Of a stretch of 64,000 nucleotides of DNA, positions 34,866 to 50,632 are shown in pieces. Each line of letters starts with the position of its first letter. Position 1 is the first letter of the stretch. This DNA comes from Xanthobacteraceae bacterium (GTDB taxonomy: Bacteria > Pseudomonadota > Alphaproteobacteria > Rhizobiales > Xanthobacteraceae): NCBI GenBank assembly GCA_035565575.1, contig DATMSE010000130.1, positions 1,107 to 65,106 on the forward strand, written 5' to 3'. The notes beneath the pieces are model-generated. The model searched no databases and was not told the origin of the DNA. It worked only from the letters and a program-made list of their open reading frames with translations. A program made the translations under genes and the position numbers.

Positions 34866-35639
34866 TCAGCGTTCGGCGAAGGCCTTCTCGACCACGAACT
34901 GACCCGGCTCGCCGTGATTGCCTTCGACGAAGCCGCGCTCCAGCAGCAGCGCGCGCGTATCGACCAGGAGAGCGGGGCTGCCGCACATCATCACGCGGTC
35001 ATGCTCGGCATCGAGTTCGGGCAAGCCGATGTCGCTGAACAGTTTGCCGGACGTCATCAGGTCGGTGATGCGGCCGCGGTTGCGAAACGGGTCGCGCGTC
35101 ACCGTCGGATAATAGATCAGCTGATTGCGGATGTACTCTCCGAGAAAATCGTGTTTCGGCAGCGTCTCGGTGATCATCTCGCCATAGGCGAGCTCCTTGA
35201 CGCGACGGCAGCCATGCAGCAGCACCACCTTCTCGAAGCGCTCATAGGTCTCGGGATCTTTGATGACACTGAGGAACGGCGCGAGGCCGGTGCCGGTCCC
35301 AACCAGATAGAGGTTACGGCCGCTATGCAGATTATCGATCACCAGCGTGCCGGTGGCCTTGCGGCTGACGATGATCTGATCGCCTTCCTTGAGGTGCTGC
35401 AGGCGCGAGGTGAGCGGACCGTCCGGCACCTTGATGGAGAAGAACTCAAGGTTCTCTTCGTAATTGGCGCTGGCGACGCTGTAGGCGCGCAGCAGCGGCT
35501 TCTCGCCCACCTTCAGACCGATCATCGTGAACTCGCCATTGCGGAAGCGGAACGACGGATCGCGGGTGGTGGTGAAGCTGAAGAGGTTGTCCGTCCAGTG
35601 ATGAACGCTGAGGACGTTCTCGTAGTTGAAATTGCTCAT
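34866..35639 (-). CDS. fpr: ferredoxin--NADP(+) reductase
   Basis: Bacterial Fpr pattern (VLSVHHWTDNLFSFTTTRD, RAYSVAS, GTGLAPF, C-terminal VVEKAF). Trimmed to MSNFNYEN (ATG 35639). Confidence 0.9.
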   Translation of the reverse strand: MSNFNYENVLSVHHWTDNLFSFTTTRDPSFRFRNGEFTMIGLKVGEKPLLRAYSVASANYEENLEFFSIKVPDGPLTSRLQHLKEGDQIIVSRKATGTLVIDNLHSGRNLYLVGTGTGLAPFLSVIKDPETYERFEKVVLLHGCRRVKELAYGEMITETLPKHDFLGEYIRNQLIYYPTVTRDPFRNRGRITDLMTSGKLFSDIGLPELDAEHDRVMMCGSPALLVDTRALLLERGFVEGNHGEPGQFVVEKAFAER

Positions 35640-35736
35640 CGGTTGAGGTCCATAACCGTTTGTGCGTCGCAAAAATCCGGGGGCAGAAATGATGCCGAAT
35701 GTGACGGAAGCGTGGCGGTTGCGTGCGCCGATATTG

Positions 35737-35748
35737 TTAGTATACTAA
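35737..35748. promoter_or_regulatory. 12-bp perfect palindrome TTAGTATACTAA in the fpr/enamidase-like divergent promoter region (candidate MarR operator)
   Basis: Perfect palindrome inside an AT-rich patch. Extends to ATTgTTAGTATACTAAtgAAT. Confidence 0.45.
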
Positions 35749-35831
35749 TGAATAAACCGACTTGATCGTTCCGTCAAGATGCGATCAAATCTGATTTCAA
35801 ACCAATGACTTAATGAGAGGGAGCAGGTCGA

Positions 35832-37031
35832 ATGTCGCACGGCGAGCCGCAGGGAAACGTCAATTCCGGGAAGTTGGTCGTTCGCAACATCGGACTGGTT
35901 CTAAGCGGCGCCATCGAAAATCCAATCCTGGATGCCGATACCATCATCGTCGAGAACGGGCTGATCACTGCCGTCGGCCGCGCCAAGGATGTCGATACCG
36001 AGGGGGCGACCTCCGTGATCGATGCCAATGGCATCACGGTAACGCCGGGCCTGATCGACAGCCATGTCCACCCCGTCGCCGGCGACTGGACGCCGCGGCA
36101 GAGCCAGCTCAACTGGATCGACTCCAGCCTCCACGGCGGCGTTACCACCATGATCTCCGCGGGCGAAGTCCACACACCCGGCCGCCCCAAGGACATCACC
36201 GGCCTCAAGGCGATGGCGATCTTCGCGCAGCGTGCGTTCGATGCCTTCCGCCCGAGCGGCGTCAAGGTGCTCGCCGGTGCGCCGGTGATCGAGAACGGCA
36301 TGGAAGAGGAAGACTTCAAGGAGATGGCCGCCGCCGGCGTGCGCTGGCTGGGCGAAGTCGGGCTCGGCAGTGTCAAGGATGGACCGACGGCGCGCAAGAT
36401 GGTGGCCTGGGCCCGCAAATACGGCATGAACAGCACGATTCATACCGGCGGTCCGTCGATCCCCGGCTCCGGCCTGATCGACAAGGACGTCGTGCTGGAA
36501 GCGGACACCGACATCGTCGGTCACATCAACGGCGGCCACACCGCGCTTCCGGACGGGCAGATCCGTTGCATCTGCGAGGGCTGCAAGCGCGGTCTCGAAC
36601 TGGTGCACAACGGCAATGAACGCTCCGCGCTCTATACGCTCCGGCTGGCCCGCGAGATGAACGATCTCGGCCGCATCATTCTCGGCACCGACGGGCCGGC
36701 GGGCTCCGGCGTTCAGCCGCTCGGCATCCTGCGCATGATCTCGATGCTGTCCTCGCTCGGCGAGGTGCCGGCCGAAATCGCATTCTGCTTCGCGACCGGC
36801 AATACCGCGCGGATGCGTGCGCTCGACTGCGGGCTGATCGAAGTCGGCCGTGCCGCCGATTTCGTCTTCATGGATAAAGCGCAGCACTCATCCGGCAAGG
36901 ATATTCTGGAAAGCGTGCGGCTCGGCGACCTTCCCGGCGTCGGCATGACCGTGATCGGCGGCATCGTGCGCAGCCAGCGCAGCCGCAACACGCCGCCCGC
37001 CGCCAAGATACCGACCATTGTAATGGGATGA
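35832..37031 (+). CDS. enamidase-like metal-dependent amidohydrolase
   Basis: 399 aa. Amidohydrolase HxH (GLIDSHVHPVAGDW). Length and opening (VVRNIGLVLSG...IIVENGLITAVG) recall the enamidase subgroup. GGGAG RBS. Confidence 0.7.
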   Translation: MSHGEPQGNVNSGKLVVRNIGLVLSGAIENPILDADTIIVENGLITAVGRAKDVDTEGATSVIDANGITVTPGLIDSHVHPVAGDWTPRQSQLNWIDSSLHGGVTTMISAGEVHTPGRPKDITGLKAMAIFAQRAFDAFRPSGVKVLAGAPVIENGMEEEDFKEMAAAGVRWLGEVGLGSVKDGPTARKMVAWARKYGMNSTIHTGGPSIPGSGLIDKDVVLEADTDIVGHINGGHTALPDGQIRCICEGCKRGLELVHNGNERSALYTLRLAREMNDLGRIILGTDGPAGSGVQPLGILRMISMLSSLGEVPAEIAFCFATGNTARMRALDCGLIEVGRAADFVFMDKAQHSSGKDILESVRLGDLPGVGMTVIGGIVRSQRSRNTPPAAKIPTIVMG

Positions 37032-37076
37032 CGCCAAATTTTTGAAGCGTGATGAGTCCAGATGCGCGTGCTGACC

Positions 37077-37169
37077 TCATCCCGAGGTGCGACGCGCGCT
37101 AAGCGCATAGCCTCGACGGATGGGCGTCGCCCTTCGAGGCTTGGACTTTGTCCGAGCACCTCAGGGTGA
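37077..37169. repeat. nested long hairpin element (family C) between the convergent enamidase-like and marR genes
   Basis: Outer arms TCATCCCGAGGTGC / GCACCTCAGGGTGA (12 Watson-Crick pairs, 1 wobble, 1 mismatch). Inner arms GCCTCGA / TCGAGGC. The core is GGGCG-T-CGCCC. Confidence 0.6.
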
Positions 37170-37196
37170 CGGCGACCGGACGTCAACCATCCCGCG

Positions 37197-37655
37197 CTAT
37201 CGCAGCTTGGCGAGCAGCGCGACGAACACGTCGCGTTCCTTCGCCGTCAACGGCGCCAAAGTCTCTTCCGTCACCTGCAACGCACTGGGCGCCGTCTTCT
37301 CGACCATCGCCTGCCCCGCGCGCGTCAACTTCACCAGCAATCGCCGTCCGTCGCGCGGATCGGGCCCGGTCTCGGTCAGTCCCCGCGCTGTCAGCCGATC
37401 GATCACGCCTTTGATCGTCGCGACATCCATCGCAGTCAGCCGGCCGAGTTGGTTCTGCGAGCAAGGTCCGGCCTCGGCCAGCTTCGACAACGCCGCCCAT
37501 TGCGTCGTAGTCAGACTGGCGCCGATGGCAGCGGTGAAGATCGCGGTATGACGCTGCGAAACCTGGCGTAGGATGAAGCCGACTTGCTCGTCGAGAATGT
37601 AAGAGGCCGGCTCGCGTGGCGCCACCTTAGCTTTTGCAGATGGCTTTTTCGACAT
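37197..37655 (-). CDS. MarR family transcriptional regulator (last gene of the hnr-like operon)
   Basis: 152 aa with a MarR winged helix (LTTTQWAALSKLAEAGPCSQNQLGRLTAMDVATIKGVIDRLTARGL...DPRDGRRLLV). Confidence 0.88.
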   Translation of the reverse strand: MSKKPSAKAKVAPREPASYILDEQVGFILRQVSQRHTAIFTAAIGASLTTTQWAALSKLAEAGPCSQNQLGRLTAMDVATIKGVIDRLTARGLTETGPDPRDGRRLLVKLTRAGQAMVEKTAPSALQVTEETLAPLTAKERDVFVALLAKLR

Positions 37656-37711
37656 CGGTGTTCCTCGGTTCCGCTGCCAGCCGGTCGCTCACGCCGCGCG
37701 GAAAGGACATA

Positions 37712-38416
37712 TCACATTGCGAGATGAGCATCGCGAATATCCGGCCGGGCATCAAGATCGGCCATCGTCCCGTTGAAGCAGATGCGGCCGCGCTCGATGA
37801 TGTAGCTGCGGTCCGAAATCAGCCGCGCGAAATGCAGGTTCTGCTCGGACAGAAGGATGCTCAAGCCTTCCTTCTTCATCGTAAGAATGGCATGCGCCAT
37901 CTGCTCGACGATTTTTGGCGACAGGCCCTCCGACGGTTCGTCCAGCAACACGAGTGAGGGATTGCCCATCAAGGTGCGGGCGATGGTCAACATCTGCTGT
38001 TCGCCGCCGCTCATGCGGCCGCCGGCGCGGTTACGCATTTCCGCGAGGTTGGGAAACAGTTCGAACAGCTTGTCCCGGCTCCAATGCGGAGCGCCGGAAC
38101 GCGGCGGCTGCCGGCCCACCTCGAGATTCTCCTCGACCGTCAGATCGGTGAAGATGCGTCGCTCTTCCGGCACATAGCCAAGACCGGCACGGCCGATCGC
38201 ATGCGTGGGCTGCTTCGAGATATCATGCCCCTCGAACATGATGCGGCCGTCACGGCGCGCCACCAACCCGACGATGGAGCGGAAGGTCGTGGATTTTCCG
38301 GCGCCGTTCCGGCCAAGCAAGGCCACCACCTCGCCGGCACCGACCTCAAGATCGACATCGAACAGGATATGCGCCGGCCCGTAATAACTATTCAGCGCGG
38401 ACACCGAGAGCTTCAT
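37712..38416 (-). CDS. HAAT-family ABC transporter ATP-binding protein (LivF-like)
   Basis: Walker A GRNGAGKSTTF, signature MSGGEQQMLTIARTL, Walker B LVLLDEPSEGL. Confidence 0.92.
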   Translation of the reverse strand: MKLSVSALNSYYGPAHILFDVDLEVGAGEVVALLGRNGAGKSTTFRSIVGLVARRDGRIMFEGHDISKQPTHAIGRAGLGYVPEERRIFTDLTVEENLEVGRQPPRSGAPHWSRDKLFELFPNLAEMRNRAGGRMSGGEQQMLTIARTLMGNPSLVLLDEPSEGLSPKIVEQMAHAILTMKKEGLSILLSEQNLHFARLISDRSYIIERGRICFNGTMADLDARPDIRDAHLAM

Positions 38417-39204
38417 GCACCAGCCTCTTCCTGATGGCGCGCGTCATAGACCAGGCCTTCGCCCAGATAGATCGCCCGCACCTGCGGATCGCGCCGCACC
38501 TTTTCCGGCGAGCCTTCGGCGATCAGCGTGCCGCGATTGAGCACCAGAATGCGATCCGCGTGTTCGAACACCACGTCCATGTCGTGCTCGGTGAACAGCA
38601 CGCCGATCGACTGCTCGCGCGCGATTCGCGCCGTGAGCCGCATCAGTTCGATGCGATCGCGCGGCGCCATGCCGGCCGTCGGCTCGTCCATCAAGAGCAG
38701 CTTCGGTTGATTGGCAAGCGCGATGGCAAGCTCGAGCCGCTTGAGGTCGCCATAAGCCAGTTCGCCGCACGGCCGCTGCGCGTAGCCGTCGACGCCGACC
38801 AGAGAAAGCAGACGGTCCGCTTCGTCGCGCGCAAAACGCGGCGTCGACCGCCACATGTTGAATATCTCGCCGGCATGGGACAGCAGAGCCACCTGCACGT
38901 TCTCGCGCACCGTCATGGTGGGGAACGTCGCGGTAATCTGGAACGTGCGACCGACGCCGAGCCGCCAGACATGCCGCGGCATCTCGCCGGTGATCTCCCT
39001 ACCGAGCAATTGCACGCGGCCGCTGTCCGGCCGACGCTGGCCGTTCAGCATATCGAAGCAGGTGCTTTTGCCCGCCCCGTTCGGTCCGATCAGCGCGAGA
39101 ATTTCTCCGGCTGCCAACCGGAACGACACGCCGCGCACGGCATGCACGCCACCATAGGATTTGGTCAGGCCATCGACGGCCAGAAGGTCGGGACCCGCGG
39201 TCAT
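38413..39204 (-). CDS. HAAT-family ABC transporter ATP-binding protein (LivG-like)
   Basis: Trimmed to MTAGPDLLAVDGLTKSYGG (ATG 39204, ATGA overlap with the permease stop). Walker A GPNGAGKST. LAYGDLKRLELA signature. Confidence 0.9.
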   Translation of the reverse strand: MTAGPDLLAVDGLTKSYGGVHAVRGVSFRLAAGEILALIGPNGAGKSTCFDMLNGQRRPDSGRVQLLGREITGEMPRHVWRLGVGRTFQITATFPTMTVRENVQVALLSHAGEIFNMWRSTPRFARDEADRLLSLVGVDGYAQRPCGELAYGDLKRLELAIALANQPKLLLMDEPTAGMAPRDRIELMRLTARIAREQSIGVLFTEHDMDVVFEHADRILVLNRGTLIAEGSPEKVRRDPQVRAIYLGEGLVYDARHQEEAGA

Positions 39205-41090
39205 TCTGCGCCCTCGGTCTGCGCCGCACGCGGCGAAGCTCGTTTCATGAAGGACAGCCGCCCGCCATCGATCAGGCTCGCGAACGTGCCGACGATGCCT
39301 TTCGGAAATGCCACGACCAGCAGCACGATCACGGCGCCCATCACCAGCTTCGACATCTCGGTATAGCTGACCAGCCAGATGCTGAGCGCCTTGTAGACAA
39401 CGGCGCCGACCACCGCGCCGGATACAGTCTCGACGCCGCCCAGCAGCACCATCACCAGTGAATCGACCGAAAGCGCGATGCCGGCATTGTCGGGAAAAAC
39501 GCTGCCCTTCAGATATGCGAACAGCGCTCCGGCGATAGCGGCGAAGGTGCCGGCGATCACGAAGGCCGTCCATTGCACGCGCTTGCTGTTGATGCCGATC
39601 GCTTCGCTGCGCAGGCCGGAATCACGCGTCGCGCGCAACGCATAGCCGAACGGCGAGAACACCAGCACGCGTAGTGCCATCACCGACAGAGCCATGATCC
39701 CAAGCGCCAGCCAGTAGAACCGGGCCGGTGTCGCCACCAGCGCGGCCGGCCAGACGCCGAGGATGCCGTTGTCGCCGCCGGTGACCTCGACCCACTGAAA
39801 GGCGATCGACCAGACGATCTGTGCGAACGCCAGCGTCAGCATCGCGAAATAGACGCCGGACAATTGCACCGCGAACCAGCCGAACAGCACCGCGCCGAAC
39901 AAACCAAGCAATGGGCCGATCAGCAGACAGACAATCATCGGAAGACCGGCAAGCTTGGCAAGGAATGCGACGCCGTAGGCACCGAGCCCGAAGTAAGCGG
40001 CATGACCGAACGACGCCATGCCGCCGACCGACATCAGGAAGTGCAGGCTGACCGCAAAGATGACAAAGATCGCGATCTCCGCGCCGACGATCAGCGCATA
40101 GTTGCTGCCGAGCAGCGGCAGTGCCGCGGCCAGCATCAGCACGCCGAGTGACGCAAGCCGCGCCCGCGCCGACAGCGGCTGCCAGGGCCGCACTGCAAGG
40201 CCCGGTGTCTGCCGCGCTGCGGCTTCCGGTTTGCCGAACAGGCCCCATGGCCGAACGATCAGCACCACCGCCATCACGAGGAAGACGAGGATGATCGAGA
40301 TTTTGGGGAAGATGAGGATGCCGAACGCATTCAATTCGGATACCAGAACCGCCGCGACGAAGGCGCCGGTGATGCTGCCGAGACCACCGATGACGACGAC
40401 GACGAACACATCGACGATGATGCGCAGGTCCATCGTGTGATTGACCGCGTCGCGCGGAATCTGCAAGGCGCCGCCAAGCGCCGCGAGAAAGACGCCGAGC
40501 GCAAAGACGCTGGTGAACAACCATTTCTGATTGACGCCGAGCGCCGCCACCATGTCGCGATCCTGCGTCGCGGCGCGCACCAGCACGCCCCAGCGCGTGC
40601 GATGAAACAGCAGCCACAAGGCGCCGAGCACCGCGGGCCCGAGCACGATCAAGAGAACATCATAGGTCGGAATGGCCTGGCCGAAGAAATCGAGCGCACC
40701 GCGCAAGCCCGGCGCGCGGCGCCCTAACAGATCGTCCGGGCCCCAGATCAACACCGCGAGATCCTCGACGACGAGCGTCAGGCCAAAGGTGGCGAGCAGT
40801 TGGAACAGTTCGGGCGAACGATAGATCCGGCGCAGCAGCGTCATCTCCACCAGCACGCCGATCGCCGCAACGATAAGCGCGGCGAGAACGATGCCGCCCC
40901 AGAAACCGAGCGTGCCCGACATCCGCTCGGTCAGAGAGAAGGCGATATAGGCACCGAGCATATAGAAGGCGCCGTGCGCGAAGTTCACGATGCGCGTGAC
41001 GCCGAAAATGATCGACAGGCCGGACGCGACCAGAAACAGCGCGGCGGCGCTGGCGAGGCCGGAAAGAAACTGGACGACGTAAAAGCTCAT
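39201..41090 (-). CDS. fused LivH-LivM type ABC transporter permease
   Basis: One 629-aa ORF. The N-terminal half is LivH-like (VNFAHGAFYMLGAY). The C-terminal half is LivM-like (MASFGHAAYFGLGAYG). Confidence 0.88.
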   Translation of the reverse strand: MSFYVVQFLSGLASAAALFLVASGLSIIFGVTRIVNFAHGAFYMLGAYIAFSLTERMSGTLGFWGGIVLAALIVAAIGVLVEMTLLRRIYRSPELFQLLATFGLTLVVEDLAVLIWGPDDLLGRRAPGLRGALDFFGQAIPTYDVLLIVLGPAVLGALWLLFHRTRWGVLVRAATQDRDMVAALGVNQKWLFTSVFALGVFLAALGGALQIPRDAVNHTMDLRIIVDVFVVVVIGGLGSITGAFVAAVLVSELNAFGILIFPKISIILVFLVMAVVLIVRPWGLFGKPEAAARQTPGLAVRPWQPLSARARLASLGVLMLAAALPLLGSNYALIVGAEIAIFVIFAVSLHFLMSVGGMASFGHAAYFGLGAYGVAFLAKLAGLPMIVCLLIGPLLGLFGAVLFGWFAVQLSGVYFAMLTLAFAQIVWSIAFQWVEVTGGDNGILGVWPAALVATPARFYWLALGIMALSVMALRVLVFSPFGYALRATRDSGLRSEAIGINSKRVQWTAFVIAGTFAAIAGALFAYLKGSVFPDNAGIALSVDSLVMVLLGGVETVSGAVVGAVVYKALSIWLVSYTEMSKLVMGAVIVLLVVAFPKGIVGTFASLIDGGRLSFMKRASPRAAQTEGAE

Positions 41091-41208: not shown

Positions 41209-42432
41209 TCAATCCTTCGGACGTTCCTTGGCAACATCCTCCTCGCTCGGCAGGAAATCCTTGCCGTCGCGATAGACCGAATCGACCATCACGCCCTTGC
41301 CGTCCTTCACCGCAGTCTTGCCGACATAGGCACCGAGCGTCGCCTGATGATCGCTCTTGCGGAAGGTGATCTCACCGAACGGCGAACTCAGCTTGATGCC
41401 TTCGGCGGCTTCGATCAGCTTGTCGGTGTCGGTGCTGCCCGCTTTGGCGAGAATCGCGGCCGCGGCCTTGATCGCACCGTAACCGACGATCGAGCCGAGA
41501 CGCGGATAATCGTTGAACTTGGCCTGATAGGCTTTGAGGAACTTGTCGTGATCGGCGGTCTTGATGTCGTACCAAGGATAGCCGGTGACGATCCAGCCGG
41601 TCGGCGTCTCGTCCTTGAGCGGGTCGAGATATTCCGGCTCGCCGGTCAGGAAGCTGACCACCGACTTGCCCTTGAACAGGCCGCGCGTATTGCCTTCCCG
41701 CACGAACTTCACGAGATCCGGACCGAACTCGACGTTGAGGATGGCTTCTGGATTGGTGGCGGCGAGCGCCTGCACCACCGGGCCGGCATCGATCTTGCCC
41801 TGCGGCGGCCACTGCTCGCCGACCCACTGAACGTCCGGGCGCTTCTTCGACAGCAGCGTCTTGAACACGGCGACCGCGGACTGGCCGTACTCATAGTTCG
41901 GCGCGACGGTAGCCCAGCGCTTCGCCGGGAGCTTTGCCGCCTCATCCGCCAGCATCGCCGCTTGCATATAGTTCGAAGGCCGCAACCGGAACGTATAACG
42001 ATTGCCTTTCGTCATCGTCATCGCGTCGGTCAGCGGCTCGGCGGCCAGGAAGAAGACTTTCTTCTGCTTGGCGAAGTCGCTGACCGCGAGGCCGATATGC
42101 GAGAAGAAGGTGCCAGTCAGCATCACCACCTTCTCGCTCGAGACCAGTTCGTTCGCAGCGGTCACCGCATCCGCCGGCTTGCCGTTGTCGTCCTTGGAGA
42201 TGACGAGGAGCTTCTTGCCGTTGATGCCGCCGGCGGCGTTGACCTCCTCGAGCGCAAGCTGCCAGCCCTTGCGATACGGTTCGGTGAAGGACGGCAAGGC
42301 GGAATAGCTGTTGATCTCGCCGATCTTGATTTCGTCCTGCGCCAGCGCGCCCGTGGTCATGACACCAGTCGTCATCGCGGCCGTTGCCAGCCCGGCCAGC
42401 ACGATGCCGAGAATCCCACTCTGTCGTCGCAT
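41209..42432 (-). CDS. Liv/HAAT-type periplasmic substrate-binding protein
   Basis: Signal peptide MRRQSGILGIVLAGLATAAMTTGVMTTGALA, then a type I PBP fold (IKIGEINSYSALPSFTEPY). Confidence 0.88.
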   Translation of the reverse strand: MRRQSGILGIVLAGLATAAMTTGVMTTGALAQDEIKIGEINSYSALPSFTEPYRKGWQLALEEVNAAGGINGKKLLVISKDDNGKPADAVTAANELVSSEKVVMLTGTFFSHIGLAVSDFAKQKKVFFLAAEPLTDAMTMTKGNRYTFRLRPSNYMQAAMLADEAAKLPAKRWATVAPNYEYGQSAVAVFKTLLSKKRPDVQWVGEQWPPQGKIDAGPVVQALAATNPEAILNVEFGPDLVKFVREGNTRGLFKGKSVVSFLTGEPEYLDPLKDETPTGWIVTGYPWYDIKTADHDKFLKAYQAKFNDYPRLGSIVGYGAIKAAAAILAKAGSTDTDKLIEAAEGIKLSSPFGEITFRKSDHQATLGAYVGKTAVKDGKGVMVDSVYRDGKDFLPSEEDVAKERPKD

Positions 42433-42546: not shown

Positions 42547-43131
42547 TTAACGCAAGCCGTCTTCGCCCTTGATCTCCGAATGCTTGAGGCCGCCGACGCG
42601 CGGCAGCGGGCGGCCGCTGTCGGTGACGGCGACGGCGACCATGATCTCGCCCGCGCGCGGAGCATCGTTGATCTGCACTTCCATGCCATCGAAGTGGCTG
42701 CGCACGAAAGCTGCGTCTTTATGCCCCAGCGGAATATCGAGCACGGTGCCGAGACCGCCGCGCTTCTTCGACGACGGAATCAGTGCAGCGCCTTTGGTCA
42801 GCACCTTGCGAAACGGTGCGCCGAGTTTCGGATGCAGGATCGCGGCAGCATGTTCGAGTTCGCCATTCTCGCCGACCGCGGCGGCCTTGCCATAGCTCTG
42901 CACATGGGCGCCATCGATGCCGAGCGCCGCGACGGCGCGCTTGGCCAGCAGATCGCCGAGCTCTTCGCCGATATCCATCAGCGGCGACAGATCATCGACA
43001 TACTGTCCCGCGAACGGATTTTCGATCACGGCCACGGCGGCCGCGCGACGCGTCGGCGGGTTCACCGCATGACCGCCTTCCTGCAAGGTTTCCTCGACCA
43101 CGGTCATGATCTTGCGAATTCGAGCGCTCAT
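42547..43131 (-). CDS. DUF1185 ('amino acid synthesis', PF06684-like) protein, paralog B
   Basis: 194 aa and clearly paralogous to the upstream gene (shared NPFAG.YV.D, YGK.A..G..GELEH, VRSHFD.MEV, RVGGLK.SEIKG.DGLR). ATGA overlap with the upstream stop. Confidence 0.8.
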   Translation of the reverse strand: MSARIRKIMTVVEETLQEGGHAVNPPTRRAAAVAVIENPFAGQYVDDLSPLMDIGEELGDLLAKRAVAALGIDGAHVQSYGKAAAVGENGELEHAAAILHPKLGAPFRKVLTKGAALIPSSKKRGGLGTVLDIPLGHKDAAFVRSHFDGMEVQINDAPRAGEIMVAVAVTDSGRPLPRVGGLKHSEIKGEDGLR

Positions 43132-43712
43132 CGCAGTCCATCCTGTCCCTTGATCTCGCTGGCCTTCAATCCGCCGACGCGCGCGTGAATCCGCGAGCCG
43201 GTGGTCATCACCAGCGCCAGCAGCAACTCGTCGGCACGCGGCGCGTCGACAATCCCGACCTCCATCGCATCGAAGTGCGAGCGCACATACGATGCATTGA
43301 TGTGCGTCACCGGCACGTCGAGCCGCGTCCCCGGTCCGCCGACTTTCTTCGCCGACGGCACGATGGCTTTCGCTTCGCCGAGAATCTCGCGCATCGCGTA
43401 ACCGCCCGGCACGTGCCACAGCGCGCCGTGTTCAAGCTCGCCGGCCGAGCCGATGATGGCACCCTTGCCATAGCCTTGAATGCGCGAAGCATCGTTGCCG
43501 AGTGCTTTCAGCAGGCTGCGCGCCATCTCGACGCCGAGCGGATTCAGATCATCCATGAATCCGGCGATGTCTTCGACATAACGGCCGGCGAACGGATTGC
43601 GGATCACCGCGAGCGCCGCGCCACGAAACAACGGCTGCGCCGGCGGCGGGCCGCCTTCGTGCAGAATTTCCTCGATGATGATGACACGCTTGCGAAGGAC
43701 GACTTCAGGCAT
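43128..43712 (-). CDS. DUF1185 ('amino acid synthesis', PF06684-like) protein, paralog A
   Basis: 194 aa. See paralog B. Its start overlaps the UPF0280 gene end by 8 nt. Confidence 0.8.
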   Translation of the reverse strand: MPEVVLRKRVIIIEEILHEGGPPPAQPLFRGAALAVIRNPFAGRYVEDIAGFMDDLNPLGVEMARSLLKALGNDASRIQGYGKGAIIGSAGELEHGALWHVPGGYAMREILGEAKAIVPSAKKVGGPGTRLDVPVTHINASYVRSHFDAMEVGIVDAPRADELLLALVMTTGSRIHARVGGLKASEIKGQDGLR

Positions 43713-44619
43713 CGATCAGATTTCCGGTTGGCGCGATAACCGCGCGTGAATGCGACAGGTCGAATGCGCGCGAATGAGATGGCGCGACGATCTGCATTTC
43801 GCCTTGCAGACAGAGCGCAGCGCCTTCGACGAGGCCGCGCGACAGCAGTTCGCGCGCGAAAGCCGCCCCCGCATCCAGCGCCATCGTGACTTCGTCATAT
43901 GTCAGCGGCGCGACCTCGCGGGTGACGAGACGCTCGCCGAGATCGCTGTCGGGTTGAATCTCGCATGCCGGCACGCGCAGGATTCCGGGATGATCCGGCA
44001 GATCGACGGCGTTGGCGATCATCGTCGCAGCGGCATCGGCTTGCGACGCGGTGCGCGCGAGAACGGTGACGGCATCGGCGATGCCGAGCGAAAAGCTGCG
44101 GCCATGGCGGCCGCTGGTGGCGACGCCGCGCACCGCGCTATCGGCATCGATCACCGTCTTGCCCGCAAGCGTCGGCGGATCGATATGCGCGACCAATCCG
44201 ATCGTGAACTGTTGGCCAGGTGCAAGATGCAATGCGATGTCGCCGCCGTTATTGACATAGGCGCGATCGAGCGTTGCGGCCCTGATCATTGCGCCAAGAA
44301 TCTCTTCGGCGACCGCGCCGGCCACCGCCGCCATCGGCGTGATGAAATGGGTCTCCGCGAACGGCGCGACGGCGCCATGCATGCGCCGCGCGACCACGCC
44401 TTTCAGGCTCGGGAATCTTGCGGCAGCACGGCGGCGCAATTCGGGCAGCTCGCCACAAAGCTTATCCAGCAATCCGGTGAAGGATTCCGCCGCCGCCGCG
44501 TAGGCGATCTCGATCGCGGCGCGGTCGCCGCATGCCTCGATCACCAGATCGATGGGGCCGTCCTGCAGGTGCAGACGGCGGCCGTCCGGCAACAACGCGA
44601 TTTGCGGGCGGCGCATCAT
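43705..44619 (-). CDS. UPF0280 family protein (ApbE-superfamily-like)
   Basis: 304 aa. The pattern ...FITPMAAVAGAVAEEI...VNNGGDIAL... recalls UPF0280/COG2122. ATGA-type overlap with the upstream stop. Confidence 0.65.
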   Translation of the reverse strand: MMRRPQIALLPDGRRLHLQDGPIDLVIEACGDRAAIEIAYAAAAESFTGLLDKLCGELPELRRRAAARFPSLKGVVARRMHGAVAPFAETHFITPMAAVAGAVAEEILGAMIRAATLDRAYVNNGGDIALHLAPGQQFTIGLVAHIDPPTLAGKTVIDADSAVRGVATSGRHGRSFSLGIADAVTVLARTASQADAAATMIANAVDLPDHPGILRVPACEIQPDSDLGERLVTREVAPLTYDEVTMALDAGAAFARELLSRGLVEGAALCLQGEMQIVAPSHSRAFDLSHSRAVIAPTGNLIDA

Positions 44620-46091
44620 TGCGGCCTGTCCTTTTTCGGCGGCGCGGGTGCGTTGCGCACCTCGGTGTCGCGCGTGAGCGACGACAGCGGGCGCACATAA
44701 TCCATGTGGCCGCCGAGCGCGGCGTAATCATCGAGCCGCATGGTGAATTCGATCGGCGCCACCAATGCCGGCGTCGGCACATAGCCAAACGCGCCGGCGG
44801 GCATCTGCGTCACATCGACCATGAAGGTGATGCCGCCGCCCGGCCAGACATAAACCGGCGCGCCGCCGCTGGTCACCGAGGTGAGCGCCTCCTTCACCGA
44901 GCGCGTCAGCCGCACCGGATTGTCGGTGACGCCGGCGCGCAGCGATCCGCCGGCGCCGCCCATGAACAGCACGGTGCACAGCGCCGGTTCGCAATTCTCC
45001 TGAATCCGCTCGACCGATTGCTGAAGATTCTCCGGCAGCGGCTTCTCCACCGGCTGCAAACGCTCGTCGAGTTCAAAATAGGCGTAGTGTTCGCCGGTGG
45101 TCGATACCATCAGCATCCGCAGCCCAGGCTTCGCCACCTTGGGATTGAACGGGCCGAGCACGGTGAGCGGATCGGAAATCTGCGTGCCGCCCCAGCCGGT
45201 GCCGGGCTCGGCGACCTGGAAGTAACGGCCCGGCGTCGAACGCCGGCCTTTCATCTTGATGCCGGTCTCGGGAATATCGAGCAGCTTGCCGGCCTGATGT
45301 TCCGACAAGACGCCGGTGATGTGATCGTCGACCACGACGACCTCGTCGACCTTGCCCTGCCACTGCTTGGCGAACATGCCGATGGTGGCGGAGCCGCAGC
45401 CGACGCGCATCCGCACTTCCGGCACGCCGTTGACGATCGGCGGCTGCCCCGCCTGCACCACAACCGTCGCGCCGCCGTCGATGGTGAGCTCGACGGCCTT
45501 GCCGTTGCACAGGTCCATCAACGCGTCGCAGGTGACGCGGCCCTCTTTCTTCGAGCCGCCGGTCAAATGATGCACACCTCCGAGCGAGAGCATCTGCGAG
45601 CCGTATTCGCCGGTGGTGACGTGGCCGATGGCCTCGCCTTCCGCGCGCACCGTCGCGGTTTCCGGGCCGAGGAAGCGATCGGTATCGATCTTCACCTTGA
45701 CGCCGCAGTAACTGAAGATGCCTTCGGTCACCACGGTGACCATATCGACGCCATCGATCTCCGACGAGACGATGAACGGCGCGGGCTTGTAATCGGGATA
45801 GGTGGTACCGGCGCCGATGGCGGTGACCATCACGTCGCGGCCGGAGACCAGCTTGCCGTCCCACTCGCCGGATTTCTGGAACGGCACCACCGCGCCGCCT
45901 TGCGACACCGTGCGCTGAAGCACGACATGCGGATCGACGCGCACCAAGGTGCCGTTCTCGTTGGCATAGCGGTCGCACGCGCCGGTATTGCCGGGCTTGA
46001 TGTAGCACATCACCGGGCAGGCATCGCAGCGGATCTTGTCGCCGTCGGTGGCGCCCGCTGCTATCGGCGATCCTTCATTCATCATCGGCAC
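44616..46091 (-). CDS. 6-hydroxynicotinate reductase-like Fe-S protein
   Basis: 491 aa. N-terminal Cys cluster IRCDACPVMCYIKPGNTGACDRYAN (C-x2-C-x3-C-x9-C). I recognise this opening and length as the family annotated 6-hydroxynicotinate reductase in proteobacteria. GTG at 46091 (ATG 46085 is the alternative). Confidence 0.65.
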   Translation of the reverse strand: MPMMNEGSPIAAGATDGDKIRCDACPVMCYIKPGNTGACDRYANENGTLVRVDPHVVLQRTVSQGGAVVPFQKSGEWDGKLVSGRDVMVTAIGAGTTYPDYKPAPFIVSSEIDGVDMVTVVTEGIFSYCGVKVKIDTDRFLGPETATVRAEGEAIGHVTTGEYGSQMLSLGGVHHLTGGSKKEGRVTCDALMDLCNGKAVELTIDGGATVVVQAGQPPIVNGVPEVRMRVGCGSATIGMFAKQWQGKVDEVVVVDDHITGVLSEHQAGKLLDIPETGIKMKGRRSTPGRYFQVAEPGTGWGGTQISDPLTVLGPFNPKVAKPGLRMLMVSTTGEHYAYFELDERLQPVEKPLPENLQQSVERIQENCEPALCTVLFMGGAGGSLRAGVTDNPVRLTRSVKEALTSVTSGGAPVYVWPGGGITFMVDVTQMPAGAFGYVPTPALVAPIEFTMRLDDYAALGGHMDYVRPLSSLTRDTEVRNAPAPPKKDRPQ

Positions 46092-46206: not shown

Positions 46207-46218
46207 TTCGTATACGAA
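46207..46218. promoter_or_regulatory. 12-bp perfect palindrome TTCGTATACGAA upstream of the hnr-like operon (candidate MarR operator)
   Basis: Perfect palindrome with the same GTATAC core as 35737-35748. Extends to ATCaTTCGTATACGAAcGAT. Lies 116 nt upstream of the hnr-like start. Confidence 0.45.
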
Positions 46219-46348
46219 CGATTTTGGGCGGGGGCGCGAAAACTGTCAAGCGGTCCGATGCGCAATTTCTTCGCACCTGCCGATCCTTTGCGCTGCAATG
46301 CCGACCCGCGCCGGGCAATGGGCAGTGCAGCATCGGCGCGTCCTTGCA

Positions 46349-46364
46349 CGTTTGTACACAAACG
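46349..46364. promoter_or_regulatory. inverted repeat CGTTTGT-AC-ACAAACG in the hnr/nicA intergenic region
   Basis: 7-bp perfect arms with a 2-nt spacer. About 230 nt upstream of nicA. Confidence 0.3.
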
Positions 46365-46548
46365 GTATTCTCGACGTCCCAGTTTTGGAAGTTCGCGTTA
46401 TGCGCAAATTTGCCACACGAGAATCGTCGTCCCTGCCAACGGGTCGGCGCGAAGCGCCGCCCGATGACAGGCTCCGGCAGGGACCCATACGCCGCGGCGG
46501 TTCGGTTCAATCACTCATGGCGAGGTTACTCTACAATAATTCAGGCAA

Positions 46549-46581
46549 GGGGTTGTGGGTCCCCGCCTGCGCGGGGACGAC
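46549..46581 (+). repeat. REP-like hairpin repeat, family A (GGGGTTGTGGGTCCCCGCCTGCGCGGGGACGAC)
   Basis: A 33-nt unit identical to the reverse complement of 61683-61715. Core hairpin is GTCCCCGC-CTGC-GCGGGGAC. Ends 10 nt before the nicA ATG. Confidence 0.8.
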
Positions 46582-46590
46582 GCTGAGAGC

Positions 46591-47121
46591 ATGACAAACG
46601 CTGAGCGCATGACTTCAGACCCGATCCGCCTGACCGTCAATGGCACGAGCCACAGCATCGCGGCGGCGGCGGATACGCCGCTGCTCTACATCCTGCGCAA
46701 CGATCTCGAACTCAACGGGCCGAAGTTTGGCTGCGGGCTCGGCGAATGCGGCGCGTGCACGGTGCTCGTCGACGGCATGGCCGCGCGATCCTGCGTGCTG
46801 CCGCTCGCAGCCTGCGCCGGGCGCAGCATCACCACGCTGGAAGGGCTCGGCTCGCGCGAGCGGCCGGACCCGCTGCAGGCGGCATTCGTGACGCATCAGG
46901 CGGCGCAGTGCGGCTATTGCCTCAACGGCATGATCATGACGGCGAAGGCGCTGCTGCTGCGCAATCCCCATCCGTCCGAGCAGGAGATCAAGCAGGCGCT
47001 GCGCTACAACCTGTGCCGCTGCGGCACGCATGTGGAAATTCTCGCCGCGGTGATGACGGCCGCCGGCCATCATGTCGCGCGCGATCACGCGGCGGGAGGC
47101 GCGGCCGATGCGACGCACTGA
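46591..47121 (+). CDS. nicA: (2Fe-2S)-binding small subunit of a Mo-hydroxylase (NicA/IorA-like)
   Basis: Two [2Fe-2S] motifs (CGLGECGACTV and QCGYCLNGMI). Start at ATG 46591 or 46609. Confidence 0.8.
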   Translation: MTNAERMTSDPIRLTVNGTSHSIAAAADTPLLYILRNDLELNGPKFGCGLGECGACTVLVDGMAARSCVLPLAACAGRSITTLEGLGSRERPDPLQAAFVTHQAAQCGYCLNGMIMTAKALLLRNPHPSEQEIKQALRYNLCRCGTHVEILAAVMTAAGHHVARDHAAGGAADATH

Positions 47122-50100
47122 CGGCGCCGATCCCGACATGACGACCACCTCTGGCGCCGAATCGCTGTCGGTCGTGCGCAGCACGCCGGACGATCCCGCC
47201 GGCAGCAGCTTCGAGATTTACATCACCATCGACGCCAGCGGACAGGTGTTCGCCTATAACGGCCATGTCGATCTCGGCACCGGCATCCGCACCGCGCTGA
47301 CGCAGATCGTGGCGGAAGAACTCGACGTGGCGCTGGATCGCGTCACCATGGTGCTGGGCGACACCACGAAGACGCCCAATCAGGGCCCGACCATCGCCAG
47401 CGAAACCATTCAGATCACCGCGGTGCCGTTGCGCAACGCGGCCGCGCAGGCGCGACATTACTTGCTGGCGCGCGCCGCCGAACAGCTCAATCAGCCCATC
47501 GATTCACTCTCGATCGAGGACGGGTTGATCCGCGCGCAGAACAATCACAGCGTCAGCTACGCCGAACTGGTGGCAGGCCACACGGTGCGCCTTGAACTGC
47601 GCGACGATGTGACCTTGAAGGACGTCAACTCCTACAAGCTGGTCGGCCGCGCGGTGCCGCGCCTCGAAATTCCGGCGATGACCACCGGCGAGATGATCTA
47701 TGTGCACGACGTGCGCGTGCCCGGCATGCTGCACGGCCGCGTGGTGCGCCCGCCTTATGCCGGCGTCGATGCCGGCGATTTCGTCGGCACCAGCCTGATC
47801 GCGGTGGACGAAAGCTCGGTCGCGGATATTCCCGGCCTCATCGCCGTGGTGCGGATCGGCGATTTCGTCGGCGTGGTGGCCGATCGCGAGGAAAATGCGA
47901 TCCGCGCCGCCAGTCAGTTGAAACTGACATGGAAGCCGACGCCGACCTTGCCGGACCTCAACGACATCGCCACCGCGCTGCGCGCCAATCCGAGCACGCC
48001 GCGCGTGCTGCGCGACACCGGGGATGTCGACGCAGCATTGGCCAGCGCCGCCACGCCGATGCAACGCACCTATGTGTGGCCGTATCATATTCACGGCTCG
48101 ATCGGGCCGTCGTGTTCGGTCGCGGATTACACCGATAGCGGCTTGCGGGTGTGGACCGGATCGCAGAACCCGCACAACCTGCGCGCCGATCTCGCGAAAC
48201 TGCTGGCGCTGCCGGAAGCCCGCATCGACGTGATCCGGCTGGAGGCCGCCGGCTGCTACGGCCGCAACGGCGCCGACGATGTCAGCGCCGACGCGGCGCT
48301 GCTCTCGCGCGCGGTCGGCCGTCCGGTGCGGGTGCAGCTTACCCGCGAGCAGGAACATGCGTGGGACCCGAAGGGCACCGGGCAGTTGATGGAAATCAAC
48401 GGCGGGCTCGATGCGAACGGCGCGCCGGCCGCTTACGACTTCGCCACGCGCTATCCGTCCAACGCCGCGCCGACACTGGCGCTGCTGCTCACCGGCGCGG
48501 TGCCGCCGGTCGCCGCGACCTTGCAGATGGGCGATCGCACCGCGATCCCGCCCTACGATTATCCTGCGATGCGCGTGATCGCCCACGACATGGCGCCAAT
48601 CGTGCGCGCCTCATGGTTTCGCGGCGTCTCGGCGCTGCCCAACACTTTCGCGCACGAATCCTACATCGACGAACTCGCCACCGAAGCCGGCGTCGATCCG
48701 ATCGAATACCGGCTGCGCTATCTGAAGGACGAGCGCGCGGCCAAACTGGTGCGCGAGGTCGCCGAGCGCGCCAAATGGGAGCCGCGCCCGACATGGACGC
48801 CGAAGGAGGCCGACGGCGACGTGGTGCGCGGCCGCGGCTTCGCTTACGCGGTCTACGTGCACGGCCCGTTTCCCGGCACCGCGGCGGCGTGGTCGGCGTG
48901 GGTCGCCGATGTCGCGGTCAACAAGGCGACCGGCGACGTCGCGGTGACGCATGTGACCGTGGGGCAGGACTCCGGCCTCGTCATCAATCCCGACGGCGTA
49001 CGGCATCAGATCCACGGCAACGTCATCCAGTCCACCAGCCGCGCGCTGATGGAGGAAGTGACGTTCGAGCCTTCCGCCGTCGCGAGCCGCGAATGGGGCG
49101 GTTATCCGATCATCACCTTCCCCGACGTGCCGACAATCGACGTGGTGATCGTCGAGCGGCCGGACCAGCCGCCGCTTGGGGTGGGCGAATCCGCCTCGGT
49201 GCCGAGCGCCGCCGCCATCGCCAACGCCATTTTCGACGCGACCGGCGTGCGTTTTCGCGAGTTGCCGTTCACGCCGGACCGGATTCGCGCGGGACTGCTG
49301 GCGGCCGAAGAAAAGACAAGGCCGCCTTCACCTTTGAAGAAGCGCGGGCTGTGGGCCGGGCTCGCCGCACTGTGTACGGCGGCGGTTGGACTGATCGTTA
49401 CCGCCTCGCCATGGCGGCCGGCGATCGCGCCGATCGCGCCGCCGGATGCCTCCACATACTCGGCCGCGACCATCGCGCGCGGCGCGCAGCTCGCGGCGCT
49501 CGGCGATTGCGCGGTGTGCCACACCCAGGACGGCGGCATCGTCAATGCCGGCGGCCGGCCGCTGGAGACGCCGTTCGGCCTCGTCTATGCCACCAACATC
49601 ACGCCGGATGTCGAGACCGGCATCGGCGCGTGGTCATATCCCGCCTTCGCGCGCGCCATGCGCGAGGGCATCCATCGCGACGGCCGGCATCTCTATCCGG
49701 CGTTTCCCTATAATCACTTCGCGAAAACCAGCGAAGCCGACTTGCAGGCGCTCTACGCCTATCTGATGGCGCAGCCGCCGGTGCGGCAGACCAATCCGGA
49801 AACCAGGCTCGCCTTCCCGCTGAACCTGCGGCCGCTATTGGCGGGATGGAATCTCTTGTTTCATTCGACGGCGGCCTTCGCGGCCGATCCGACCCAATCG
49901 GACGCCTGGAATCGCGGCGCCTATCTGGTGGAAGGGCTCGGCCATTGCGGCGCCTGCCACACGCCGCGCAACGCGCTCGGCGCGGAGAAGGCGTCGCTGA
50001 AACTCGCCGGCGGCGCAGCCGAAGGCTGGACCGCGCCGCCCTTGACGTCGCTGTCGCACGCGCCGATCCCGTGGAGCGAGCAGGAGCTGTTCACGTATCT

Positions 50101-50632
50101 GCGTAGCGGCATCTCGCAGTTTCACGGCGTCGCGGCGGGACCGATGGCGCCGGTGGTGAAGGAACTTAGGCTCCTGCCGGACAGCGACATCCGCGCCATG
50201 GCGACCTATCTCGCCTCGTTCAATCCGAACGCGCCGACGCAGGAGGCGCAGCAGGCGATGGCGGCGCGGCTTGAGGCCGTCACCAGCGCGAAGCCGCTCA
50301 ACGCGTCGCAGCAGGGCGCGCGCATCTATGACGGCGCCTGCGCGGTGTGCCACGAGCCCGGCGGCCCGCAATGGTTCGGCAGCCGGCCCTCGCTGGCGCT
50401 CAACAGCAACCTGCACGGCCCCTCGCCCGACAATCTCGCGCGCGTCATTCTCGAGGGCATCACCCAGCCGGTGAACGGCGAGCTCGGCGCGATGCCGGGC
50501 TTTTCGCACAGCCTCAACGACCAGCAGCTCACCGAACTGATCCGCTACCTGCGCACCCGCTTCGCGCCCGACAAGCCGGCCTGGGACGGCATCGACGCGG
50601 CGCTGAAGGCGGCGCGCGGGACGATCAAATAA
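47108..50632 (+). CDS. nicB: Mo-cofactor large subunit fused to a triheme cytochrome c (NicB-like)
   Basis: About 1174 aa. IorB/aldehyde-oxidase-type Mo-binding region, one TM (LWAGLAALCTAAVGLIVTASPW), then three CxxCH motifs (49508-49522, 49946-49960, 50339-50353). GGGAGG RBS 8 nt before ATG 47108. Overlaps nicA by 14 nt. Confidence 0.8.
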   Translation: MRRTDGADPDMTTTSGAESLSVVRSTPDDPAGSSFEIYITIDASGQVFAYNGHVDLGTGIRTALTQIVAEELDVALDRVTMVLGDTTKTPNQGPTIASETIQITAVPLRNAAAQARHYLLARAAEQLNQPIDSLSIEDGLIRAQNNHSVSYAELVAGHTVRLELRDDVTLKDVNSYKLVGRAVPRLEIPAMTTGEMIYVHDVRVPGMLHGRVVRPPYAGVDAGDFVGTSLIAVDESSVADIPGLIAVVRIGDFVGVVADREENAIRAASQLKLTWKPTPTLPDLNDIATALRANPSTPRVLRDTGDVDAALASAATPMQRTYVWPYHIHGSIGPSCSVADYTDSGLRVWTGSQNPHNLRADLAKLLALPEARIDVIRLEAAGCYGRNGADDVSADAALLSRAVGRPVRVQLTREQEHAWDPKGTGQLMEINGGLDANGAPAAYDFATRYPSNAAPTLALLLTGAVPPVAATLQMGDRTAIPPYDYPAMRVIAHDMAPIVRASWFRGVSALPNTFAHESYIDELATEAGVDPIEYRLRYLKDERAAKLVREVAERAKWEPRPTWTPKEADGDVVRGRGFAYAVYVHGPFPGTAAAWSAWVADVAVNKATGDVAVTHVTVGQDSGLVINPDGVRHQIHGNVIQSTSRALMEEVTFEPSAVASREWGGYPIITFPDVPTIDVVIVERPDQPPLGVGESASVPSAAAIANAIFDATGVRFRELPFTPDRIRAGLLAAEEKTRPPSPLKKRGLWAGLAALCTAAVGLIVTASPWRPAIAPIAPPDASTYSAATIARGAQLAALGDCAVCHTQDGGIVNAGGRPLETPFGLVYATNITPDVETGIGAWSYPAFARAMREGIHRDGRHLYPAFPYNHFAKTSEADLQALYAYLMAQPPVRQTNPETRLAFPLNLRPLLAGWNLLFHSTAAFAADPTQSDAWNRGAYLVEGLGHCGACHTPRNALGAEKASLKLAGGAAEGWTAPPLTSLSHAPIPWSEQELFTYLRSGISQFHGVAAGPMAPVVKELRLLPDSDIRAMATYLASFNPNAPTQEAQQAMAARLEAVTSAKPLNASQQGARIYDGACAVCHEPGGPQWFGSRPSLALNSNLHGPSPDNLARVILEGITQPVNGELGAMPGFSHSLNDQQLTELIRYLRTRFAPDKPAWDGIDAALKAARGTIK

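Follow-up and report, generated by a model that had tools for sequence, protein, structure and literature searches.

Does the gene cluster at positions 34866 to 50632 of a stretch of Xanthobacteraceae DNA (contig DATMSE010000130.1; 64,000 nucleotides, hereafter the window) encode a nicotinate pathway in which hydroxylation of the ring is followed by its reduction and hydrolytic opening? Very probably it does, the encoded route being the upper part of the aerobic nicotinate pathway of the “Azorhizobium type.” The hybrid route, which a sequence-only reading of the window had proposed, is supported by the homologies of the enamidase (Ena), the 6-hydroxynicotinate reductase (Hnr; EC 1.3.7.1), the molybdenum hydroxylase subunit NicB, and the MarR-family regulator, together with conserved palindromes between the divergent hnr and nicA genes. 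An open reading frame (ORF) listing and inspection of start codons revealed all 13 genes present and intact, with the ORFs, strands, and arrangement described in that reading. The cluster as a whole looks intact, each product being as long as its orthologs.

In the predicted route, a Liv-type ATP-binding cassette (ABC) system would import nicotinate or 6-hydroxynicotinate, a role suggested by its genomic context. NicA and NicB would add a hydroxyl group at C6 of nicotinate and deliver electrons to the respiratory chain, as suggested by their homology to the NicAB of canonical clusters. A short form of Hnr, homologous to the Hnr of Eubacterium barkeri-type clusters, would turn 6-hydroxynicotinate into 1,4,5,6-tetrahydro-6-oxonicotinate (THON), probably drawing on a free ferredoxin that the adjacent Fpr would keep reduced with NADPH. 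The enamidase, strongly homologous to a structurally solved enzyme, would hydrolyze THON to 2-formylglutarate and ammonia, and the later conversion via glutarate would be encoded elsewhere in the genome. A BpsR-like MarR protein may repress both the hnr and the nicAB promoter, which are divergent, by way of two conserved palindromes until 6-hydroxynicotinate releases it. The UPF0280 protein and a pair of DUF1185 proteins would serve the Hnr and Ena steps, most plausibly in cofactor maturation of Hnr or in product handling.

Both the hybrid nicotinate pathway and its gene arrangement are already in the literature, and the cluster type is known. Genes for the first three enzymes of E. barkeri are said to have been noted in nine Proteobacteria by Alhapel et al. 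in 2006. In 2012, Shettigar et al. searched by BLAST with the E. barkeri cluster (PMC3511419), and the same cluster was drawn for Azorhizobium caulinodans ORS571, Bradyrhizobium japonicum USDA110, Rhodopseudomonas palustris HaA2, and strain SG-6C (PMC3511419, Fig. 4). In growth experiments with nicotinate or 6-hydroxynicotinate as the only carbon source, strain SG-6C degraded both compounds (PMC3511419). THON intermediates were shown biochemically in A. caulinodans (PMC3511419, citing Kitts 1989 and 1992), and that its route passes through THON and glutarate is textbook knowledge, cited in PMC9304392. Given the 2012 drawing, the pathway proposed from the sequence was correct but not new. The remaining interest lies in the accessory genes that always accompany hnr, in the short form of Hnr and the source of its electrons, and in the unexplored fold of this reductase. 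A recent study connects 6-hydroxynicotinate with immune priming in plants (PMC13510662).

Enzymes of the predicted pathway

The domain content of the products was assessed by sequence searches against Pfam, NCBIfam, and the PDB. The ena gene (35832 to 37031, plus strand) encodes a protein of 399 amino acids that matches the E. barkeri enamidase (PDB 2VUN) with an E value of 4.3e-108 and 45.7% identity over 381 ungapped columns (residues 14 to 394 against 3 to 383), in keeping with the enamidase-like amidohydrolase, active on THON, that had been proposed. The HxH motifs of the two proteins are aligned (DSHVHP in the window, DTHVHV in 2VUN), and the second-best PDB match (E = 2.9e-06) is weaker by about 100 orders of magnitude.

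The product of hnr (44616 to 46085, minus strand; 489 amino acids) has no Pfam, NCBIfam, or PDB sequence match. Close homologs carry the NCBI name “6-hydroxynicotinate reductase,” and one entry, from a Xanthobacteraceae metagenome-assembled genome (MAG), is 100% identical. Over its full core, the window protein is 42% identical to a protein of Sporomusa ovata (P0453) and 43% identical to one of Proteiniborus (P0457), both encoded within ena-hnr clusters of the E. barkeri type (with hgd, hmd, and others); these identities and the NCBI family name sustain its description as 6-hydroxynicotinate reductase-like. The ortholog of strain SG-6C is 42% identical to E. barkeri Hnr (PMC3511419).

A scan with a six-sequence Hnr alignment as the query, covering one genome per species, returned at least 598 matches, of which the 80 closest (74 to 87% identity) were analyzed; gene counts refer to the 54 of these loci with full 10-kb flanks. 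Neither the window Hnr nor any of its 80 close relatives has the N-terminal 2x[4Fe-4S] ferredoxin domain (CxxCxxCxxxCP twice) that most Hnr representatives at 34 to 47% identity carry. The window protein thus appears to be a short-form variant of the Hnr family, with predicted reductase activity. Residues C20, C23, C27, C37, C230, T94, and T448 are invariant in an alignment of 42 sequences (A4). In a wider alignment of 17 sequences (A2), the four N-terminal cysteines and T448 remain invariant, C230 nearly so, and T94 varies. The AlphaFold2 model of Hnr (predicted local distance difference test [pLDDT] score of 83.5, predicted TM-score [pTM] of 0.81) found no significant neighbor in the PDB with Foldseek, the best E value being 0.09 and TM-scores falling below 0.12. 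Judging from this model, the fold seems to be unrepresented among solved structures and the family structurally unexplored.

The hydroxylase is encoded on the plus strand by nicA (46591 to 47121; 176 amino acids), the small subunit with two [2Fe-2S] clusters (Pfam Fer2 and Fer2_2), and by nicB, which starts at 47072 or 47108 and ends at 50632 (1,186 or 1,174 amino acids). NicB combines a molybdopterin part (MoCoBD_1/2) with a cytochrome c part (Cytochrom_C and Cytochrome_CBB3), separated by a hydrophobic segment of 19 residues (760 to 778) that is taken as a membrane anchor. Three CxxCH motifs, at residues 813, 959, and 1090, bear out its description as a triheme protein. Along its full length, NicB is about 60% identical to proteins encoded on replicons of Rhizobium, Mesorhizobium, and Azospirillum, and the match to the protein of Rhizobium leguminosarum WSM1325 reaches 59.5% identity across 99% of the length. 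In WSM1325, the nicAB-type pair is divergent from genes for a flavin adenine dinucleotide (FAD) monooxygenase, an alpha/beta hydrolase, an amidohydrolase, and a MarR protein, a set that makes up a canonical oxidative nic cluster. This similarity, together with the domain architecture of both subunits, upholds the proposed identity of NicA and NicB. The same kind of hydroxylase thus goes together with an oxidative lower pathway in WSM1325 and with a predicted reductive one in the window.

Among solved structures, NicB comes closest to a membrane aldehyde dehydrogenase of the Gluconobacter type (8gy3), matching its large (molybdenum) subunit and its triheme cytochrome subunit. This leaves room for another explanation: that the pair is a membrane-bound aldehyde dehydrogenase standing by chance next to a reductive operon to which it is unrelated. 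That nicAB is not beside hnr in 25 of the 54 loci would fit such a coincidence. However, the two gene sets are divergent in 28 to 29 loci (the nicA orthologs of 29 of them being 60 to 77% identical), two conserved palindromes lie in the shared spacer, and NicB has a counterpart of about 60% identity in a canonical nic cluster. Moreover, where nicAB is missing, in Microvirga and in a Terriglobales locus (L045), a different molybdenum hydroxylase, of the FAD-containing xanthine dehydrogenase (XDH) type, is encoded directly upstream of hnr. A chance neighborhood with an aldehyde dehydrogenase is therefore highly unlikely, and NicAB is retained here as the predicted nicotinate hydroxylase.

Conservation of the cluster

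The arrangement of the genes is not due to chance, since dozens of genomes show them in this order. The 80 closest loci come from Bradyrhizobium, Afipia, Xanthobacter, Rhodopseudomonas, Rhodoplanes, Microvirga, Aurantimonas, Mesorhizobium, Acetobacteraceae, and Dongia and, unexpectedly, from many Acidobacteriota (Terriglobia). The pathway is thus widespread, given the number of matches in the species-representative genome set, and soil Acidobacteriota are among its close relatives. Neighborhood conservation, offered by the sequence-only reading as a check of its proposal, proved to be strong: among the 54 loci, hnr is accompanied by at least one DUF1185 gene in 53, by a UPF0280 gene in 51, and by an ena homolog no more than 10 kb away in 44. 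The other genes are less constant (MarR in 35, the ABC transporter in about 32, nicA in 29, nicB in 28, and fpr in 18).

The loci of Acidobacteriota (L045 to L081) have the order hnr-UPF0280-DUF1185(A+B)-ena, and their Hnr is 75 to 78% identical to the alphaproteobacterial protein, which suggests transfer of the cluster across phyla. The genomic contexts in anaerobes were retrieved by a homolog search with the Hnr representative P0251, followed by contig look-ups. The order is ndhS-ndhL-ndhM-ena-hnr-UPF0280-DUF1185-hgd-hmd-ndhF in Sporomusa ovata and hgd-hmd-dmdAB-mgm-mii-MutL-dml-ena-hnr-UPF0280-DUF1185 in Proteiniborus. Because the block recurs in these clusters together with other modules, the conserved unit is ena-hnr-UPF0280-DUF1185, common to anaerobes and aerobes, and the hydroxylase, transporter, fpr, and lower pathway are interchangeable. 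The cluster is not an indivisible “supercluster,” the term used in the sequence-only reading, but consists of this core and of exchangeable hydroxylase, transporter, and fpr modules.

UPF0280 and DUF1185

Three operon genes had been left without an assigned role, and these are the UPF0280 gene and the DUF1185 pair. The UPF0280 gene (43705 to 44619, minus strand; 304 amino acids) matches NCBIfam NF003322 with 412 bits against a cutoff of 290. In 48 of the 54 loci, as in Sporomusa and Proteiniborus, it is the next gene after hnr. Homologs carry the precomputed Pfam label PF27030 (“AbpE_bact”), and source databases assign the family to the ApbE superfamily. In the PDB, the neighbors of its AlphaFold2 model (pLDDT of 85.7) at E values of 0.001 or below are DVU1097 (2o34) and otherwise only the flavin transferases ApbE, Ftp, and FmnB; for these three, the Foldseek probability is about 1.0, but TM-scores are 0.35 to 0.5 and identities 10 to 18%. 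UPF0280 is accordingly modeled with an ApbE-like fold. We know of no activity for any member of the family. Purified E. barkeri Hnr reportedly contains a covalently bound flavin, along with one [2Fe-2S] and two [4Fe-4S] clusters (Alhapel and colleagues, 2006), and in combination with the predicted fold this makes a role of UPF0280 in flavin maturation attractive.

The two DUF1185 (PF06684) proteins, paralog A (43128 to 43712) and paralog B (42547 to 43131), are both encoded on the minus strand, have 194 amino acids each, and match Pfam AA_synth with E values of 5.6e-70 and 5.8e-74, respectively; paralog A also matches PDB 3byq (2.9e-62). They are 51% identical to each other, and each is 78 to 80% identical to its own ortholog in Microvirga (78% for A), which suggests an old duplication and perhaps a hetero-oligomer. 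Paralog B is found in 52 of the 54 loci, paralog A in 25, and both in 24. The pair (42547 to 43712 in the window) also occurs in Microvirga, Xanthobacter, Rhodopseudomonas, and Acidobacteriota; paralog B stands alone in most Bradyrhizobium loci (for instance, L002:12367-12951), and the anaerobes have a single DUF1185 copy.

The Pfam label of PF06684 (“Amino acid synthesis”) and the branched-chain amino acid type of the transporter would also accommodate an operon for amino acid uptake or synthesis, and a structural genomics paper of 2010 argued for a role of the family in amino acid metabolism from neighborhood data (PMC2954203). Such a function is extremely unlikely here. The nicotinate clusters of anaerobes, which have no Liv transporter, carry DUF1185 either flanked by UPF0280 and hgd or as the last gene after ena-hnr-UPF0280, the loci of Acidobacteriota keep hnr-UPF0280-DUF1185-ena without Liv genes, and the Liv-type fold binds many organic acids. 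The distribution of both families agrees instead with a place in nicotinate degradation: since UPF0280 and DUF1185 accompany hnr and ena in aerobes and in strict anaerobes, they would serve the two steps that these organisms share. A function of DUF1185 as a 2-formylglutarate decarboxylase specific to the aerobic Azorhizobium route was considered and rejected, because the gene also follows hnr-UPF0280 in the strictly anaerobic E. barkeri-type clusters, whose pathway reduces 2-formylglutarate and does not decarboxylate it.

Probable electron supply to Hnr

With no ferredoxin domain of its own, the short-form Hnr probably takes its electrons from a free ferredoxin. The fpr gene (34866 to 35639, minus strand) encodes a ferredoxin/flavodoxin-NADP+ reductase of 257 amino acids with the Pfam domains FAD_binding_6 and NAD_binding_1, its best NCBIfam match being Fpr (NF008178), below the curated cutoff. 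The gene and its strand are as first described; the end given at that time (35672) corresponds to an upstream TTG, whereas the ATG start places it at 35639. In about 23 loci of Hyphomicrobiales, fpr is divergent from ena at a distance of 116 to 300 bp, and it stays with ena even where the pair sits on the other side of hnr. Three loci (L001, L017, and L061) have a gene for a 7Fe ferredoxin beside fpr, and the loci of Acidobacteriota have no adjacent fpr. A protein of 969 amino acids from the representative library (P0253) fuses a GltD-like NAD(P)H/FAD oxidoreductase and a 2x[4Fe-4S] ferredoxin domain to Hnr; this domain composition is a Rosetta-stone hint that NAD(P)H may drive Hnr by way of Fe-S relays. 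Together, these observations support, short of proof, an aerobic electron supply from NADPH through Fpr and ferredoxin to the short-form Hnr.

A terminator-like hairpin with a 15-bp stem followed by a T-run lies just downstream of fpr (34782 to 34814, minus strand) and suggests that the gene is monocistronic. The divergent spacer between ena and fpr (35673 to 35831; about 160 to 190 bp) contains an imperfect inverted repeat (35754 to 35768 and 35782 to 35796), different from TTYGTRYACRAA, the operator-like sequence of the hnr-nicA spacer.

Predicted uptake and regulation

The nine-gene operon runs on the minus strand from 46085/46091 to 37197, with hnr first and the MarR gene last. Its description as tightly coupled holds for five junctions, which overlap by a few bases (hnr/UPF0280, UPF0280/DUF1185-A, DUF1185-A/DUF1185-B, permease/ATPase, and ATPase/ATPase), and not for the remaining three, where gaps of about 115, about 115, and 56 nucleotides precede the binding-protein, permease, and MarR genes, respectively. 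The transporter comprises a periplasmic substrate-binding protein (41209 to 42432; Pfam Peripla_BP_6), a fused LivH/LivM-type permease (39201 to 41090; 629 amino acids) with two BPD_transp_2 stretches, a LivG-like ATPase (38413 to 39204; 263 amino acids; ABC_tran and BCA_ABC_TP_C), and a LivF-like ATPase (37712 to 38416; 234 amino acids; ABC_tran), all on the minus strand. The ATG of the LivG-like gene at 39204 overlaps the stop codon of the permease gene, and a 4-nucleotide overlap joins the start of the LivF-like gene to the end of the ATPase gene upstream of it. Orthologs of the fused permease with 626 to 630 amino acids occur in L001, in L002, and on an Inquilinus contig. From its context, the ligand of the binding protein is presumed to be nicotinate or 6-hydroxynicotinate.

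The MarR-family regulator (37197 to 37655, minus strand; Pfam MarR) is BpsR/NicR-like, with PDB matches to 2nnn (1e-43) and to BpsR (6pcp; 4e-27). In BpsR, 6-hydroxynicotinic acid is contacted by Tyr15, His23, Arg26, and His32 (PMC6837509). The aligned residues in the window protein are Y19, F27, R30, and H36, so that three of the four contacts are kept; phenylalanine also occupies the position of His23 in 2nnn, the closer homolog.

The 505-bp spacer between hnr and nicA holds two palindromes, box 1 (TTCGTATACGAA, 46207 to 46218) at the putative hnr promoter and box 2 (CGTTTGT-AC-ACAAACG, 46349 to 46364) on the nicA side. In about 30 related loci, box 1 is identical or has at most 2 changed bases; box 2 is likewise kept in about 30, and so is the spacing of about 150 bp between them. 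Within the 64-kb window, TTYGTRYACRAA has two exact matches, both in this spacer, and no exact match upstream of ena or fpr. On the hnr strand, box 1 lies just downstream of the -10 hexamer of a sigma-70-like promoter (TTGACA-17-CAAAAT, 46221 to 46249, minus strand) with 10 of 12 consensus matches, a call that rests on position only, as the promoter scan overall returned no more sites than expected by chance. Their sequence and conservation make the two palindromes good operator candidates for the BpsR-like MarR protein, the candidate binding sequences in the spacer being TTCGTATACGAA and CGTTTGTACACAAACG.

Weighing of the pathway assignment

Several observations weigh against this reading of the locus, in whole or in part. 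The source is an uncultured MAG, so that the locus is known here from sequence alone, and the links to E. barkeri Hnr and to Pseudomonas putida NicAB are transitive, running through intermediate homologs. No genes of the downstream glutarate route were found among the window ORFs scanned, and tblastn with an FdxA-like protein of Microvirga found no ferredoxin gene in the window. The fpr gene is next to the cluster in only 18 of the 54 loci, all from Hyphomicrobiales lineages. In the regulator, Phe27 replaces a histidine that binds the ligand in BpsR. The invariant cysteines of the window Hnr amount to one CxxCxxxCx9C motif and C230, so that its cofactor set differs from the one reported for the E. 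barkeri enzyme. Purified Hnr and enamidase of E. barkeri reportedly work in vitro without extra proteins, so UPF0280 and DUF1185 are not catalytic necessities. Finally, the [ST]GA[ST] element of the canonical ApbE acceptor motif (Dxx[ST]GA[ST]) occurs in none of the 42 and none of the 17 aligned Hnr homologs.

This last result rules out canonical ApbE flavinylation of Hnr, and any flavin role of UPF0280 on Hnr must therefore be noncanonical. Invariant in the larger alignment, C230 is one candidate site for flavin attachment. A broader proposal that takes these points in is possible, though held only tentatively. In it, ena-hnr-UPF0280-DUF1185 would be a universal module in which UPF0280, possibly with a hexameric DUF1185, forms a dedicated maturation or partner system for Hnr (for example, to attach the covalent flavin at the invariant Cys230 by a chemistry other than the threonyl-FMN transfer of canonical ApbE), and aerobes would have dropped the ferredoxin domain of Hnr and recruited Fpr, with or without a 7Fe ferredoxin, next to ena. 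If true, a ferredoxin-dependent Hnr would have been made usable in air by loss of a domain and recruitment of Fpr. The comparative picture, with its shared core, short and long Hnr, ena-fpr pairing, and two operator boxes, gives a handle on these points.

The substrate also bears consideration, as the same enzymes might act on another N-heterocyclic carboxylate, such as a substituted or isomeric pyridine carboxylate. Nicotinate is assigned here by inference, the hydroxylase varies by lineage (NicAB in the window, the FAD-containing XDH-type enzyme in Microvirga and Terriglobales), and the change at the BpsR His23 position affects a ligand residue. Against another substrate stand the orthologous clusters of strain SG-6C, a degrader of both nicotinate and 6-hydroxynicotinate, and of A. 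caulinodans, in which THON was shown (PMC3511419). The similarity of NicB to its canonical-cluster counterpart points the same way, as do the Firmicute homologs, which lie inside full E. barkeri-type clusters for nicotinate fermentation. Near the XDH-type hydroxylase gene of L045 (L045:6351-18826), the one acidobacterial locus with annotated flanks, are genes for a nicotinamidase-like isochorismatase, a nucleoside hydrolase, and a ureide-permease-like protein, the first two of which also speak for nicotinate. A different substrate is thus unlikely, and the assignment to the aerobic nicotinate pathway is kept.

The absence of NicC- or NicX-type genes from the window, noted in the sequence-only reading, agrees with Pfam scans of selected long ORFs, which were not exhaustive; homologs of nicC, nicX, nicD, nicF, and nicE were absent from the window ORFs scanned.

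Neighboring genes

Directly downstream of nicB, the window contains an island of respiratory and low-oxygen genes (50726 to 61463). It encodes NnrS (50726 to 51898), a Crp/FNR-type regulator (51895 to 53073, minus strand), an alternative oxidase (52798 to 53538), a cupredoxin (53763 to 54275), subunits of a cbb3-type oxidase (CcoN-like, 54573 to 56303; FixP-like, 57211 to 58095), a DUF2189 protein, and a FixI-like P-type ATPase (59130 to 61463). In Bradyrhizobium sp. CB1717 (L002), no such island adjoins nicAB, so its adjacency in the window is probably coincidental.

Beyond fpr, at the opposite end of the cluster, lie genes for a cytochrome P450 (30398 to 31933) and an adenylate/guanylate cyclase-domain protein (31967 to 33265) on the plus strand and for a cupin (33273 to 33836) and a short-chain dehydrogenase/reductase (33796 to 34638) on the minus strand. 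In Bradyrhizobium sp. CB1717, too, fpr is followed by a P450 gene. Far upstream (4119 to 6181, minus strand), genes for a protocatechuate 3,4-dioxygenase beta-subunit-like protein and a thiolase, of the beta-ketoadipate type, are unrelated to the nicotinate cluster. No Rfam or tRNA match was found in the window.

Comparison with known systems

The closest known system is the cluster of Azorhizobium and Bradyrhizobium (AZC_2790-2804 and blr3818-blr3830; PMC3511419), which has the same set of hydroxylase, Hnr, enamidase, ABC transporter, and conserved unknowns. In B. japonicum and other Bradyrhizobium loci, the genes have the same order and the proteins are 65 to 90% identical to those of the window, which differs in having two DUF1185 paralogs where most Bradyrhizobium loci have only paralog B. 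In Xanthobacter and Rhodopseudomonas, unlike in the window, the ena-fpr pair is on the other side of hnr.

The cluster of E. barkeri shares homologs of Hnr and enamidase with the window, and the ena-hnr-UPF0280-DUF1185 block found here is identical to that of Sporomusa ovata and Proteiniborus, whose clusters are of the E. barkeri type. The hydroxylase is different, being NicAB with a cytochrome c in the window and the four-subunit NdhFSLM in E. barkeri. In contrast to the E. barkeri type, the window Hnr has no N-terminal 2x[4Fe-4S] domain and the window has no hgd, hmd, mgm, mii, dmd, or dml, whereas it adds fpr, a Liv-type transporter, and a MarR gene.

With the flavin transferases ApbE and Ftp, UPF0280 shares its predicted fold, but it differs from them in its low sequence identity (10 to 18%) and in that its presumed client, Hnr, has no acceptor motif. 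With the nic clusters of P. putida KT2440 and Bordetella (nicAB, nicCDEFX, and nicR/bpsR), the window shares the two-subunit triheme hydroxylase and a BpsR-related MarR protein. The lower pathway of those clusters is oxidative, with the monooxygenase NicC and the dioxygenase NicX, whereas that predicted for the window is reductive and hydrolytic, with Hnr and Ena.

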